Below, piece by piece: positions 9,565 through 29,809 of a stretch of 38,019 nt of DNA. Numbering within the stretch: the first letter of the stretch is position 1; every line of letters begins with the position of its first letter. Under the pieces are notes generated by a model. That model was not told the origin of the DNA, searched no databases, and saw only the letters and a list, made by a program, of their open reading frames with translations. The position numbers were made by a program, and so were the translations under genes. The stretch spans positions 1 through 38,019 of the forward strand of contig JAYEOW010000031.1 of NCBI GenBank assembly GCA_034723395.1. The letters run 5' to 3'. This DNA is from Candidatus Margulisiibacteriota bacterium. GTDB taxonomy: Bacteria > Margulisbacteria > WOR-1 > O2-12-FULL-45-9.

Positions 9565-9592
9565 ACAAGTTTTTGCCTTTATCCTACGATAA
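9565..9592 (+). promoter_or_regulatory. sigma28-like promoter #1
   Basis: ACAAGTTT-N12-TACGATAA. Confidence 0.7.
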
Positions 9593-10772
9593 ATATAATA
9601 CAAACCCTTCTTTTGGTAGAATCGCAGATTTCCAAAAGAGGAACAAGGTTAATAAAAGAGGGGGAAGGGCAATAGGTTATCTTAAAGGACTAAATTTATT
9701 ACCTCGCAGAAGGATACTTGCCGGATGGAAGGAGCATTTTAACCGCAGGGGAATGGATGCTTCTCCTCTCCTTCAAAAATTCAAGGGTATCTTAAATGGC
9801 TTGTCCTGGAAGAACGTGAGAAAAATATACGACCTTCATTTTAAGTTCAGGTCAGCGAGAGCGCAAATATTAGCTGATCAGTCAAGGTTGGGGGTTGCAG
9901 CTACTATTAAGAAATCCGTGGATCTCTATCGCGGGACGCTAGCGGAATTGATGGGGATATTGGTTGATAAAAAAATCAGTGCTAAATTAGCCGTCTGTGT
10001 TATCGGGAGTGTTGCCCGAAAAGAGCAGGTGCCCCAGTCAGATGTCGATTTTGTTTTTATTGCGGATAAGAATCTTAATAAGCGCGAAATCGATAAACTA
10101 AGGTTGCTTTATAGGCAAACCATCGATTTATTAACGGTATTTGGCTTCCCTTTTGAGGCGGCTACCGGCATATTTGACACAGCCGGCCGGATTACCGGTA
10201 AGAAGCGTGACGTAAAAGCTAATCAAGGCGTTCAAGTACGCTCCCTTCAAGATATCTCTTTCCTGTTCGGGAATGAAGGGATCATGCTTGAGTACAGGGA
10301 TGCCCGGCTGCGAAAAGTTTATAAAAACGCCAGGGAGAACGTGGCGATCATTTTTGATGAGATGCCCGTAGAGGTGACCAGCATAAAGTTGGCGCTGCGC
10401 TTCTTCTCTTTTACTAAACATATCGCGTCTATCCATTTACGAAAAAGATTCGGTTCTACTAACAGCGCGTTGAGGGGGCTTTATGAAGCCGGTCTGTTGG
10501 AAAAAAGAGAGCTTGGCCGGCTGCGGATAATACTGGACCGGTTGTTGTTCTTGCGGTTGAATTTAACATTGCCGGACGAAACATTGCTCTCCGAAGAAAG
10601 GATGAAAGACTATCTTTCAGGTATTAGCGGGGAGACATCTCCTGTCAGAATAGCTGAGAATCGGGTCTTTATGGGAAGAAATATCGATAAAAATCATGTG
10701 TTAAAACTGATCAAGCGGGATGTGGAGTATATCGAAGATTTCATAGAAAGATTTCGAGCCCGTTTGTTATAA
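9573..10772 (+). CDS. Pol-beta superfamily nucleotidyltransferase (DUF294/GlnD-GlnE-like NTase plus helical substrate-binding domain); start uncertain
   Basis: AVCVIGSVARKEQVPQSDVDFVFI; C-terminal STNSALRGLYEAGLL...LLFLRL resembles DUF294_C/GlnD. The TTG at 9573 lies inside the promoter; the first in-frame ATG is at 9753. Confidence 0.7.
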   Translation: MPLSYDKYNTNPSFGRIADFQKRNKVNKRGGRAIGYLKGLNLLPRRRILAGWKEHFNRRGMDASPLLQKFKGILNGLSWKNVRKIYDLHFKFRSARAQILADQSRLGVAATIKKSVDLYRGTLAELMGILVDKKISAKLAVCVIGSVARKEQVPQSDVDFVFIADKNLNKREIDKLRLLYRQTIDLLTVFGFPFEAATGIFDTAGRITGKKRDVKANQGVQVRSLQDISFLFGNEGIMLEYRDARLRKVYKNARENVAIIFDEMPVEVTSIKLALRFFSFTKHIASIHLRKRFGSTNSALRGLYEAGLLEKRELGRLRIILDRLLFLRLNLTLPDETLLSEERMKDYLSGISGETSPVRIAENRVFMGRNIDKNHVLKLIKRDVEYIEDFIERFRARLL

Positions 10773-11264
10773 AGAAAAAATCCTCAGCTGAGGACTTAAT
10801 TTTTCGTGGTTTTTCAATATCCATAATGCGATCTCTCTCTGATTTACGGTGTGCAGAATTACATATTTCTCTTCAGTAAAGGCCCTTCCTTTTTTCACAT
10901 CAAGTTTGACCGCTTTTGCAGGGACGACATCTAATGCTTTGGTTATTTCGTGCAGCGCCCGGACGAAATAGGACAGGTAGGGGGTGTTGGTCTTGGTCCA
11001 ATGCATAAAACGGAGCTCAAAGCCATGCTTAGGGAAACTTTCGTTCCCCCAATAAAGAGTGATGTTCCTCGCTTTAAGTGCGGACAAATAACCTTTCAAT
11101 TCAGTTTCTGTGGGTGGGGGAAGTCTTCTGGTGGCGCGTAATCCGTTGACATAAGTTTTAAACGTTTGAGTATTCATGCCTAAGACCTTAGAATAATCAA
11201 AGGGGGTCCTTTGCGGCTTCCGCCTAATTAGTTTTATTAATGATCGAGTTATCCCCTTTATCAT
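10767..11264 (-). CDS. Hypothetical basic protein (orphan)
   Basis: 165-aa ORF filling the gap between genes, preceded by promoter motif #2; no family recognised. Confidence 0.7.
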   Translation of the reverse strand: MIKGITRSLIKLIRRKPQRTPFDYSKVLGMNTQTFKTYVNGLRATRRLPPPTETELKGYLSALKARNITLYWGNESFPKHGFELRFMHWTKTNTPYLSYFVRALHEITKALDVVPAKAVKLDVKKGRAFTEEKYVILHTVNQREIALWILKNHEKLSPQLRIFSL

Positions 11265-11273
11265 TCCGGATAT

Positions 11274-11301
11274 TCATCCTTTATTATCCTTAAAAATTTC
11301 A
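11274..11301 (-). promoter_or_regulatory. sigma28-like promoter #2
   Basis: Minus strand TGAAATTT-N12-AAGGATGA, 9 nt before ATG 11264; the weakest -10 match of the set. Confidence 0.5.
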
Positions 11302-11324
11302 CTTTTTTATGATATGCTAGCCTC

Positions 11325-11954
11325 GTGGGCAAACAAAAACAGATCGAGTATTTTGAGGGCCTGTTGTATAAACATGGTCCCAGCCATGAAGCGCTCGATT
11401 GGAACAGTAAAGAGAGCCAACAGCTGCGGGCCGAGGTCCTAAAAGAGATATTGGTTTACGGAAAGAAATCTACCCATATTTCACTGCTTGATGTCGGTTG
11501 CGGGTTTGGCGACCTTTTTAAATACCTCAAAAAAGAACATAAAATCTGCTATACAGGCTACGATATTTCCTCTAAAATAATAGACGAAGCCAGGAAAAAA
11601 TATCCGCAGGCCCATTTTGAGGTTAGGGATATCCTGGAAGATCAAAATGTCCCAAAATTTGATTATGTTTTTTGCTCCGGAGTTTTTAATATCCGGACAA
11701 ACGAGATTAAAGAACATAAAACGCATGTCCGATCGATGATAGAAAGGATGTATGGTTTGGCAAAGTGCGGGGTGGCGATCAACTTCTTGAGCGAAGGGCG
11801 TTTGCCGCCGGCCGATCCGGAGGGATTGAATGCGGGGCGCTATTTTTATTTTAATCCGGAGGAGATCGTGAATTATTGCCGGCATATAACGGATGATTAT
11901 ATCCTAAGACACGATTACCATCCGGGCGATTTTACGGTATACTTGTTAAAATGA
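11325..11954 (+). CDS. Class I SAM-dependent methyltransferase
   Basis: LLDVGCGFG, YTGYDIS, FDYVFCSGVFN. Confidence 0.9.
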   Translation: MGKQKQIEYFEGLLYKHGPSHEALDWNSKESQQLRAEVLKEILVYGKKSTHISLLDVGCGFGDLFKYLKKEHKICYTGYDISSKIIDEARKKYPQAHFEVRDILEDQNVPKFDYVFCSGVFNIRTNEIKEHKTHVRSMIERMYGLAKCGVAINFLSEGRLPPADPEGLNAGRYFYFNPEEIVNYCRHITDDYILRHDYHPGDFTVYLLK

Positions 11955-28228: not shown

Positions 28229-28240
28229 ATTGTGTATACT
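28212..28240 (+). promoter_or_regulatory. sigma70 promoter of serS
   Basis: TTGACC-N17-TATACT, 8 nt before ATG 28249. Confidence 0.8.
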
Positions 28241-28248
28241 TATTTTTA

Positions 28249-29520
28249 ATGCTTGACCCAAAATTAATTCGTAATAATCCGGATGCGGTCCGAAAAGGGC
28301 TGAAAAACCGCAAGGCGGATGCCTCACTGGTCGATCGATTTCTTGCTATTGACGAAGAATGGCGTGAATTAACCTTAGAGATCGAAGAAATGAAGGCGAG
28401 ACGTAATAAAGTATCAGATCAGATCGGGATCCTCAAGAGGAAAAAAGAGAAAGCCGACAATCAGATCGAGGAGATGAAGGAGCTTTCCTCCCGCGTAAAA
28501 GAATTGGACGAAGAATATGCCAAACTTGAAGAAAAATTAAAAGATCTAAGTTTAGAAATGCCCAACATCCCTCACGTATCGGTCCCGGTTGGGTTCGATT
28601 CGCGCGACAATATCGAAGTCCGCAGTTTTGGGGAGAAGAAAAAGTTCGGATTCAAAGCTAGATCTCACGACGAGATCGGGAAAAAACTTGGTATCCTGGA
28701 TTTTGAAGCGGCTGCCAAGATATCGGGTTCACGTTTTGTGGTTTATCGAGGTCTCGGAGCGGCGCTCGAACGGGCTTTGATCAGCTTTATGCTTGACCAG
28801 CATACCAAAGAAAACGGTTACGCCGAAGTCCTCCCCCCGGTACTGGTTAATCCAAAAAGTATGTTAGGGACGGGGCAGCTCCCTAAATTCGAAGAAGAGA
28901 TGTTTCATCTAAAAGACGATGGTTTTTATCTAATCCCAACCGCGGAGGTCCCGGTCACTAACCTTCATCGAGAAGAGGTGTTGAAAGTTGATAGGCTCCC
29001 CATTAAATATGTCTGTTACTCTCCATGTTTCAGAAGAGAAGCGGGATCGTACGGGAAGGATGTTAAAGGGATCATCCGTCAGCATCAATTCAATAAAGTT
29101 GAGCTGGTGAAGTTTGCTGAGCCGGGAAGATCTTATGACGAATTGGAAAAACTAACTAAGGATGCGGAGTCGATCCTTCAAAAATTAGAACTTCCTTACC
29201 GGGTGGTAGAACTTTGCAGCGGAGATCTGGGTTTTTCTTCCGCAAAGACTTACGATCTCGAAGTCTGGTTCCCCTCCGAGAACCAGTATCGAGAGATATC
29301 TTCCTGTTCTAACTTCGAATCTTTCCAGGCCCGCCGTGCCGGGATAAAATATAAAGCTGATCCGAAAGCAAAGCCCGACTTTTTGCATACTTTAAATGGT
29401 TCCGGCCTGGCAGTGGGGAGGACCTTTGCCGCGATCCTCGAGAATTATCAGCTGAAGAATGGATCAATTAAGGTTCCCCGGGTTTTACGGCCATATTTAG
29501 GCGGGATCGAGCAGATCTAA
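28249..29520 (+). CDS. serS: Serine--tRNA ligase
   Basis: [43 protein letters not shown]. Confidence 0.97.
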
Positions 29521-29521
29521 C

Positions 29522-29549
29522 GCAAGTTTCCCCCCTTTTGATCCGATAA
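29522..29549 (+). promoter_or_regulatory. sigma28-like promoter #8
   Basis: GCAAGTTT-N12-TCCGATAA, squeezed into the 34-nt gap after serS. Confidence 0.75.
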
Positions 29550-29554
29550 TACAA

Positions 29555-29809
29555 GTGATGCAAGTTGGAAAATTTAATATCCATTTGTCTCCCAATAAAT
29601 CTTTATCGCATGCCGGAAAAACTGAGAAACCGGGTGAGACAAATTACATGGATAATCTAAAAGATGTGTTTGCCAAAGCGACGGATAACCTAGAAGAGTC
29701 CAAGAAAGTCCCCGGCGCTTTTGTAGCAAATACCTTCCAGGTTAATTCCGCGCAATTTTTAAATATACAAGATATATCTTCACGATTTAACGGCTCCGCC
29801 CCGGTGTGA
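29555..29809 (+). CDS. Small hypothetical protein (start GTG 29555 or ATG 29558)
   Basis: 84-aa ORF immediately after promoter #8. Confidence 0.7.
   Translation: MMQVGKFNIHLSPNKSLSHAGKTEKPGETNYMDNLKDVFAKATDNLEESKKVPGAFVANTFQVNSAQFLNIQDISSRFNGSAPV

Follow-up and report, generated by a model that had tools for sequence, protein, structure and literature searches.

Two classes of promoter motif upstream of eight genes in a Margulisiibacteriota genome and their possible relation to an apparently motor-less flagellar-type export apparatus

Eight genes preceded by two classes of promoter motif

The stretch of DNA analyzed here, referred to below as the window, is the entire contig JAYEOW010000031.1 (38,019 bp) from a Candidatus Margulisiibacteriota genome of 1.68 Mb, assembled in 55 contigs and estimated to be 97% complete. 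Eight of its genes had been flagged in a reading of the sequence alone as a single sigma-28-dependent regulon of exported effectors. The promoters upstream of these genes instead fall into two motif classes, A and B, with four genes each, and class A is also found upstream of the export-gate operon of a flagellar-type type III secretion system (T3SS) encoded elsewhere in the same genome. We describe the genes, the distribution of the two motifs and the export apparatus, and consider which of the products are candidates for export.

Class A (CAAGTTT-N14-CGATA(A/T)) is represented in the window by four exact matches, all on the forward strand. The first (CAAGTTT-N14-CGATAA, 9566..9592) lies 5' of a gene encoding a 339-amino-acid (aa) nucleotidyltransferase (NTase) with a DUF294/GlnD-like Pol-beta fold according to Pfam (9753..10772, + strand, ATG at 9753), and overlaps a TTG at 9573. 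The second (15523..15549) precedes the gene for a 952-aa protein of pI 11.3 (15583..18441, +), in which a conserved N-terminal domain of ~270 aa is followed by a variable Pro/Arg/Lys-rich region. The third (19367..19393) lies 5' of orf259, an orphan of pI 11.0 (19432..20211, +). The fourth, located right after serS (29523..29549), ends 8 nucleotides (nt) before the ATG at 29558 of a gene for an 83-aa protein (29558..29809, +), a member of a small, fast-evolving family that is kept after serS and shows 18-32% identity among its members.

Class B (GTGAAAT-N17-GATAAT, usually GTGAAATTT-N14-CGATAAT) occurs as an exact copy (24797..24826, −) that stops 7 nt before the ATG at 24789 of a gene for an 876-aa protein (22159..24789, −) whose residues 561-727 form a class III adenylate/guanylate cyclase domain; the N-terminal ~550 aa of this protein have no known family. 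Copies with variant spacing or mismatches precede three other genes. GTGAAAT...GGATATAAT (18547..18578, +) stops 3 nt before the ATG at 18582 of a gene for a 222-aa sigma-70-family protein, which has regions 1.2, 2 and 4 and is without region 3 (18582..19250, +). A weak motif, GTGAAATTT-N14-GGATGAAT (11272..11302, −), with two mismatches in the −10 element and outside our strict list, stops 7 nt before the ATG at 11264 of orf165, which has no assigned family (10767..11264, −; the start is M1 at 11264 or M30 at 11177). Finally, TTGAAAT-N16-CGATAAT (27823..27852, +), with its first base off consensus, lies in the 432-nt spacer before serS and 5' of a 56-aa open reading frame (ORF) of doubtful coding status (MASPTIKIARY..., 27871..28041, +). 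All six N-terminal sequences quoted in the sequence-only reading are encoded in the window, namely those of the sigma factor (18582, +), orf165 (11264, −), the cyclase (24789, −), the 56-aa ORF (27871, +), orf259 (19432, +) and the 83-aa protein (29558, +).

Distribution of the motifs across the order

Distribution of the motifs was analyzed in 21 genomes from two families of one order, comprising the window's genome and 20 relatives. The window's genome contained 19 strict class-A sites, compared with 0-2 in each of 10 shuffled sequences, and 13 strict class-B sites, compared with none in any of the 10 shuffles. Exact A sites were present in all 21 genomes at 8-22 sites per genome (0-2 for the reversed motif), and exact B sites likewise in 21 of 21, at 1-18 per genome (reversed, 0-1). 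Judged by these counts, both motifs mark predicted regulons that are conserved order-wide in the Margulisiibacteriota. Neither is the housekeeping promoter, since the tRNA genes carry ordinary TTGNNA-N17-TATAAT promoters. The spacing of both motifs fits that of sigma-28 promoters, with CAAG as the −35 element of A and GAAA as that of B.

Motif A, with one mismatch, precedes the operon of fliK-like, flgE-like, fliMNOPR and flhBA genes that encodes the export gate in the window's genome. In three relatives (G010, G004, and G002), near-identical exact A sites share contig and strand with FlhA and are found ~6.5 kb 5' of it. Motif A also lies 5' of a second FliK-like gene, which is followed by a paralog of the C-terminal part of FlhB (FlhB-C). 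The operon for the rod, the rings, fliA and fliF to fliJ has a perfect TTGACA-N17-TATAAT promoter. Class B was found 5' of rpoD, the primary sigma gene, in the window's genome and in G004; other genes downstream of class-B sites encode a GH116 glycosidase, a HATPase protein and many orphans (for example, the site at G000:C29:80537-80566). The proposed link to sigma-28 held for the four class-A genes, whose motif also stands before the export-gate operon, and did not extend to the four class-B genes. As for an extracytoplasmic function (ECF) sigma factor as a possible reader of motif B, the ECF gene on contig C53 appears to have its own site of the GGAACC...GTCTAA type and has no B motif. On contig C29, a helix-turn-helix (HTH)-Fic protein (G000:C29:61922-62851) adjoins a 747-aa RelA/SpoT-domain protein (63420-65663, L173), and a class-B-like site at C29:62996 faces the gene for the latter.

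Often only 3-13 nt separated the −10 element from the start codon, as at 29549-29558, 24789-24797 and 18578-18582 in the window, at many other class-A sites, and upstream of the genes that follow serS in relatives. This spacing suggests that leaderless or near-leaderless mRNAs are common in both regulons. The mRNA of the 222-aa sigma factor is probably of this kind because its class-B-like motif ends so close to the ATG, and the same holds for the mRNAs of the cyclase orthologs described below, in which a B-like motif is similarly close to the start.

Class-A promoters are clustered before genes for 768-, 1152-, 1838- and 1911-aa proteins without a known family (G000:C16:15393-27860, G000:C3:8935-14823, and G000:C22:5905-11762). 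Those large proteins adjoin a GT2-TPR glycosyltransferase and small coiled-coil proteins, and motif-A ORFs in two relatives have N-termini resembling that of the 1838-aa protein. These large class-A proteins (768-1911 aa) are candidate components of the apparatus outside the cell. An all-against-all BLAST comparison of the regulon proteins revealed almost no paralogy (three pairs), and Pfam searches at E≤5 with 28 regulon proteins returned chance-level matches only.

A flagellar-type export apparatus without recognizable motor or filament

A search of the genome for export machinery, as the sequence-only reading had advised, identified a complete flagellar-type T3SS with a basal body. The gate cluster, on one contig, encodes FlhA, FlhB, FliR, FliP, FliO, FliN, FliM, a 271-aa FlgE/F/G-like protein and a FliK-like protein. 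The basal-body cluster, on another, encodes FlgF/G (two copies), FlgA, FlgH, FlgI, a FliA/WhiG-like sigma factor, FlgB, FlgC, FliE, FliF, FliG, FliH, FliI and FliJ. The export gate proteins scanned for, FlhA, FlhB, FliP and FliR, and the ATPase complex FliH/I/J had Pfam matches far over cut-off, and the components of the MS ring, the rod, and the L and P rings (FliF, FliE, FlgB, FlgC, FlgF/G, FlgH, FlgI, and FlgA) are present. FlhB retains an intact NPTH site at residue 269, and FlhA was found in all 21 genomes.

Several hallmarks of a rotating flagellum were not detected. The 154-aa FliG comprises just the N and M domains, and FliG_C was not detected over cut-off in any of the 21 genomes, while four flagellated control genomes were positive. 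A weak FliG_C match in the window's genome proved to be an ABC1 kinase; no second FliG was found, the weak FliG_M match being an MgtE_N protein. Flagellin_N had no match in the window's genome and a match in only one of the 20 relatives, and Flagellin_C matched only at E=0.24, inside FlgC. The sole Flagellin_N match in the order is a 251-aa protein (L036, G016:C4, 1408-2163) with a Sec-type signal peptide before a flagellin-like helix and with no motif A. The only MotA_ExbB match was ExbB, adjoining ExbD and TonB; no MotB_plug or CheW match was found in the window's genome, and FlgM was not found by Pfam. Because flagellin, the stator, the FliG torque domain and chemotaxis genes were all undetectable, the machine is most likely a non-rotating export or surface-assembly device. 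The genome also encodes two secretins and three T2SSE ATPases. No injectisome-type architecture was seen, the L and P rings being kept. Our survey of the literature on flagella and secretion in Margulisbacteria, Saganbacteria and Termititenax, which did not cover the Termititenax genome paper that may bear on the matter, found no account of such an apparatus.

The FliA-like sigma factor has 246 aa and is encoded inside the basal-body operon (G000:C55:4553-5293, L078). It is 72-81% identical in 20 of the 21 genomes, where CysS is 60-71% identical. Its best NCBIfam family is FliA/WhiG (E=2e-39), JGI names its homologs FliA, and NCBI sources place close homologs under Candidatus Margulisiibacteriota, Margulisbacteria, Saganbacteria or WOR-1. 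A complex prediction that paired this sigma factor (18 rows) with the 83-aa family (9 rows), as a possible FlgM-like anti-sigma factor, scored 0.00, which gives no verdict and counts as evidence neither way.

N-terminal composition and start codons

The flagged proteins had been described as lacking signal peptides and transmembrane helices, and this was borne out: none of the eight contains a hydrophobic 19-residue window (mean Kyte-Doolittle value of at least 1.6). Most had also been described as beginning with a basic, low-complexity extension. We compared the first 25 residues of regulon products with a background of 1471 ORFs, obtained with our own ORF caller and ribosome-binding-site-guided starts, so that the p-values are approximate. 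The 19 class-A products were enriched in S/T/N/Q/G/P (median of 10 versus 7 of the 25 residues, p=8e-6) and had fewer D/E residues (p=0.011), with net charge no different from background (p=0.49). The polar bias was replicated in 27 class-A ORFs of relatives (p=1.3e-7). Fifteen of the 19 products have no hydrophobic stretch. The 15 class-B products were more basic (median net charge of +5 versus +1, p=9e-4), and this bias was weak in 23 ORFs of relatives (p=0.084). The N-termini of the two classes are therefore distinct, polar and acid-poor in A and basic in B. The polar, acid-poor class-A N-termini plausibly match those of known flagellar T3SS substrates, a permissive criterion that is not specific. 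In structural models by AlphaFold2 (AF2), confidence was low (predicted local distance difference test [pLDDT] score <50) at residues 1-13 of the 952-aa protein and, in the 83-aa family, at residues 1-3 and 11-23.

The term extension is itself only partly apt, since the proteome is basic and the eight window proteins are basic along their full length (median pI of 10.2). The predicted proteome has a median pI of 8.98, with 29% of proteins above 9.5, although the only DNA run listed is a brine metagenome. Moreover, the FliA-like sigma factor, a cytoplasmic protein, carries a variable lysine-rich N-terminal tail of ~10-35 residues before a near-invariant core, as read in each of 19 orthologs (L154-L172) as well as in the window's genome. 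Since this tail is shared by a cytoplasmic protein, the proteome is basic and replication in relatives is weak, the basic tails are no evidence of export; they are a trait of class B, which also stands before rpoD, and we have dropped the idea that they are export signals. A shared N-terminal peptide motif of class B was also rejected: a motif obtained by expectation maximization from the 15 products scored the 23 ORFs of relatives little above background (p=0.018, with 3 of 23 above the 95th percentile).

The choice of start codon affects three of the proteins. NCBI places the start of the sigma factor at M45 (178 rather than 222 aa), that of orf165 at M30 (136 rather than 165 aa) and that of the NTase 21 residues later (318 rather than 339 aa). 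The Logan call of the NTase has 339 aa, and the Atlas record of orf165 begins at residue 30. The NTase frame is open back to TTG 9573, which lies inside motif A, and this upstream part offers no usable start after the promoter. For the sigma factor, the long start appears right because similarity to region 1.2 of RpoD sets in at residue 31; the short NCBI start would cut this conserved region. The cyclase shares a conserved N-terminus with both of its orthologs. The 56-aa ORF is called in the Logan assembly only and is omitted by NCBI.

These observations bear on an explanation in which the machine exports only its own parts and all eight flagged products are cytoplasmic regulators, enzymes or orphans, with N-termini that reflect a basic proteome, low complexity and mis-chosen starts. 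We consider this possible but rather doubtful. The high proteome pI and the basic character of the eight proteins throughout are what it would predict, as are the lysine-rich tail of FliA, the lack of significance of the class-B bias in relatives, and the NCBI starts, which strip the basic N-terminus from the sigma factor and orf165 and shorten the NTase; in addition, sigma factors, class III cyclases and DUF294 NTases are standard intracellular signalling folds. It does not readily account for the strong, polar and acid-poor class-A bias, which was replicated in other genomes, or for the tie between class A and the export-gate operon. An apparatus without filament or stator that persists in 21 of 21 genomes, its FlhB NPTH site intact, needs cargo, and at least for the sigma factor the mis-chosen start is the NCBI one, which removes part of a conserved region.

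Families and distribution of the encoded proteins

Two of the three conditions that the sequence-only reading had named as refuting it do not apply: a suitable export apparatus is encoded, and the flagged genes are not conserved syntenic regulators. No full-length ortholog was found in the 20 relatives for orf259, orf165, the sigma factor or the NTase, and the cyclase has full-length orthologs in two of them (44% identity in G013 and 42% in G017), each with a B-like motif upstream. The NTase scores above the Pfam cut-offs, with 28 bits for DUF294 and 27 bits for NTP_transf_2, and has weak GlnD and MntA matches; the relatives yielded one weak partial match. As a DUF294/GlnD-like protein it belongs to the same broad Pol-beta superfamily as GlnE, and it showed no similarity specific to an effector.

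Among the class-A proteins, the 952-aa protein has no Pfam family and has three homologs among 5.8 billion clusters, in which conservation is limited to the N-domain and is followed by variable Pro/Arg-rich sequence. The AF2 model of its N-domain (pLDDT of 76) had no Foldseek match in the PDB at E≤0.001, and a metagenome scan with this domain confirmed no relative. For orf259, no family was found in Pfam (E≤5), NCBIfam, PADLOC or PDB sequences, and an exhaustive HMMER search of 1.84 billion representatives returned only itself and one marginal match (E=2e-4); its Atlas model has a pLDDT of 0.54, and structural look-alikes had template modeling (TM) scores of ≤0.29 and no family. The nine-member alignment of the 83-aa family shows conserved NF(M/L)xxLKxxF and PGV(F/Y) blocks; the AF2 model (pLDDT of 61) has one helix at residues 30-43, and there is no Pfam family.

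Among the class-B proteins, the sigma factor has Pfam region 2 and region 4 domains, and its closest NCBIfam families are RpoH, RpoS and RpoD, not FliA. A basic 30-residue N-terminus occupies the place of region 1.1. Its best matches in all 20 relatives are the primary sigma factors (~355 aa), at 42-47% identity; the best non-self match among 5.8 billion clusters scored 111 bits, and a scan of genome contigs returned only distant sigma factors of many phyla. orf165 had no match in Pfam (E≤5), NCBIfam, PADLOC or PDB sequences and none in the 20 relatives; its Atlas model is of low confidence, with look-alikes at TM≤0.53 and no family. A novel fold that searches for deamidases would miss is conceivable for orf165 and orf259. 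The cyclase domain matches Pfam Guanylate_cyc (E=7e-22) and, best in the PDB, CyaC (1wc0) and CyaB (3r5g), and its FADISGFT, KYIGDAIMA and GDAVNVAARL segments align as class III motifs. The secreted cyclase toxins ExoY, CyaA and EF belong to class II. None of the 57 PDB matches of the cyclase was an ExoY, CyaA or EF entry, the named cyclases being adenylate and guanylate cyclases of the signalling type. An AvrPto match in the cyclase (E=9e-4, 19.7 bits against a cut-off of 27) was treated as spurious.

The sequence-only reading had proposed a full effector arsenal, including the sigma factor, the cyclase and the NTase, delivered into prey or host by a symbiotic or predatory bacterium. An export apparatus does exist, the genes are accessory and evolve fast in a small genome of 1.68 Mb, and, according to one report, the non-flagellated predator Lysobacter enzymogenes OH11 exports toxic proteins by a flagellar T3SS (PMC7688988). 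Even so, we regard such an arsenal as unlikely. The sigma and cyclase genes are under class B, which has no flagellar link and also precedes rpoD, and the cyclase is of the class III signalling type, unlike the known secreted toxins. No deamidase or papain-like domain was matched by any ORF, so the putative deamidase was not recovered. Genes for a translocon, a needle tip or chaperones were not identified, although no search aimed at chaperones was made; the L and P rings are retained with no injectisome-type architecture; and the sole DNA run listed is the brine metagenome, with no host signal. The suggestion that an exported sigma factor reprograms the RNA polymerase of a target found no support. 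Overall, the effector reading has partial support in class A and none in the case of the sigma factor and the cyclase.

Variability of the cysS-serS junction and neighboring genes

Several of the class-A and class-B genes described above lie between cysS and serS, where the window has 12.7 kb (15505-28248); in 10 of 10 relatives examined the distance is 0-2.3 kb. In those relatives (L064-L073), the gap holds a major facilitator superfamily (MFS) transporter (five genomes), an MNT-HEPN pair (two), nothing (two) or other ORFs (one). By this comparison, the junction is a variable hot spot. Some window genes of the gap sit elsewhere in G013. A motif-A site was found at the equivalent position after serS in 6 of the 10 loci, where the 83-aa family is kept. 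The region of the 56-aa ORF showed no similarity to the cysS-serS spacers of relatives, except for the serS promoter (TTGACC-N17-TATACT, 28209-28243), which is 83-86% conserved over 35 nt in G007 and G012. The cyclase gene neighbors a radical SAM gene and a gene for a LEA_2 lipoprotein, the latter kept with the cyclase in G013. A 784-aa protein encoded at 25462-27816 is a patatin-like phospholipase fused to POTRA domains and an Omp85 barrel; it is kept in G013 (51% identity), where it adjoins the LEA_2 lipoprotein. Rfam and tRNA scans of the window returned no match.

Variability of this kind, with an MNT-HEPN pair in two relatives, could indicate that the genes of the cysS-serS gap and of the 9.5-11.3 kb region are defense-island or mobile cargo with no role in secretion, combining a Pycsar-like cyclase, a toxin-antitoxin-like NTase and a MzaA-like sigma factor. 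PADLOC models gave matches of PycC, at best E=7e-23, to the cyclase domain and of MzaA to the sigma factor, and the NTase has its weak MntA match. The PycC and MzaA matches extend to generic cyclase and sigma domains only, no Pycsar effector gene is adjacent, the NTase and orf165 genes are convergent and form no operon, and the ORF list of the window contains no integrase or transposase. The cyclase, LEA_2 and patatin-Omp85 genes are syntenic in G013, and all the genes are under lineage-specific promoters that are conserved order-wide. We consider a defense or mobile origin very improbable.

Discussion

The flagged genes are best explained as members of two regulons, in which class-A products are the likeliest late substrates of a motor-less flagellar T3SS and class-B genes encode cytoplasmic accessory regulators; we assign this reading a probability of roughly 45%. 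In the proposed cascade, the housekeeping sigma factor would transcribe the basal-body operon, including fliA, and the FliA-like sigma factor from that operon, most likely the reader of motif A, would in turn activate the class-A promoters. The class-A products that are without signal peptides, have polar, disordered N-termini and are mostly orphan or fast evolving would be the likeliest late substrates. Some of them (the FliK-like proteins and the conserved small families) would be structural or regulatory parts, and others, including the 952-aa protein and orf259 of the window, would form a shell of variable cargo. The 222-aa sigma factor, the class III cyclase, orf165 and the 56-aa ORF would most simply be cytoplasmic accessory regulators, whose basic N-termini would be no export signal.

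Several points weigh against this explanation. We infer export of each class-A protein from co-regulation and composition only, and a polar N-terminus is a weak classifier of export. Three of the 19 class-A products have clear Sec-type signal peptides, and therefore the class-A regulon is not purely T3SS cargo. The NTase gene has a 155-nt leader, and its product has a typical cytoplasmic signalling fold. The FliA-like sigma factor scores 135.6 bits, below the NCBIfam FliA cut-off of 189.6, and one sigma factor may read both motifs. A divergent filament or stator may be invisible to Pfam, since many class-A proteins, including those of 768-1911 aa, are family-less. The genome, finally, is a metagenome-assembled one, in 55 contigs and 97% complete.

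A further-reaching interpretation, which we put forward tentatively and hold to be rather unlikely as yet, is that the flagellum was converted throughout the order into a non-rotating type III export machine, with the filament genes of the sigma-28 regulon replaced by fast-evolving, lineage-specific cargo. The converted machine would keep the rod, the L and P rings and parts of the C ring, having lost flagellin, the stator and the FliG torque domain, and its cargo would include the 768-1911-aa proteins and the 952-aa and 259-aa orphans. Flagellum-derived dedicated secretion machines are known from one case, the injectisome, plus a few recent gene-loss cases (Buchnera and Lysobacter). If the interpretation is true, the flagellum would have become a secretion system a second time, independently of the injectisome and in a free-living group that is sister to the Cyanobacteria, and a deep, order-wide, motor-less and filament-less basal body would provide a second independent natural experiment. 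The sharply defined motif lists the candidate cargo of each genome (8-22 genes), and the cargo question is therefore directly testable. There are also two cautions for annotation: in lineages of this kind a sigma-28 motif points to orphan genes, and basic N-terminal tails in this basic proteome are no export signals.

Comparison with known systems

The sigma-28 consensus of Salmonella, E. coli and Bacillus is TAAAGTTT-N11-GCCGATAA or TAAA-N15-GCCGATAT. By comparison with this consensus, the class-A regulon resembles the late regulon of sigma-28 (FliA) in its (C/G)AA(G/A)TTT, 14 nt, CGATAA geometry, and also in having a FliA-like sigma factor in a flagellar operon, a FliK-like member and non-hydrophobic, disordered N-termini. 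Unlike the classical regulon, the −35 element is CAAG (A) or GAAA (B) rather than TAAA, the motif precedes the export-gate operon itself, the products are mostly orphans, and no flagellin, FlgM, FlgK/L or FliD is recognizable.

In Campylobacter jejuni, the Feds, CiaI and FspA are sigma-28-dependent non-flagellar proteins exported via the flagellar T3SS. The class-A regulon is similar in that non-structural proteins appear to be co-regulated by a sigma-28-type factor and lack Sec signals, with export in the present case a prediction from sequence. C. jejuni differs in being motile, with full filament and motor, and in having export demonstrated by experiment.

Two cases of flagellar reduction count, with C. 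jejuni, as the closest documented analogues. Lysobacter enzymogenes OH11 is reported to be a non-flagellated predator with no functional flagellin, in which retained flagellar T3SS genes export non-flagellar proteins (PMC7688988). The loss in that case is recent and concerns one genus of Pseudomonadota, whereas the apparatus described here occurs in 21 of 21 genomes, spread over two families within an order, appears to have lost the stator and the FliG torque domain as well, and has a dedicated promoter regulon of 8-22 sites. Buchnera aphidicola has a basal body and type III export machinery without a filament and is proposed to use them as a protein exporter (PMC8109811). Buchnera lives as an obligate endosymbiont, its genome is of 0.6 Mb, and it is not known to have a cargo regulon; the genome studied here is of 1.68 Mb and probably derives from a brine metagenome.

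A further parallel is the injectisome, or non-flagellar T3SS (PMC3459982), a flagellum-derived export machine that has lost its motility functions and gained cargo, the gain being a proposal for the present system. Injectisomes have a secretin in place of the L and P rings and are without FliG, FlgB/C-type rods and FliE. The apparatus described here is no injectisome, because FlgH, FlgI, the rods, FliE and a truncated FliG are kept.

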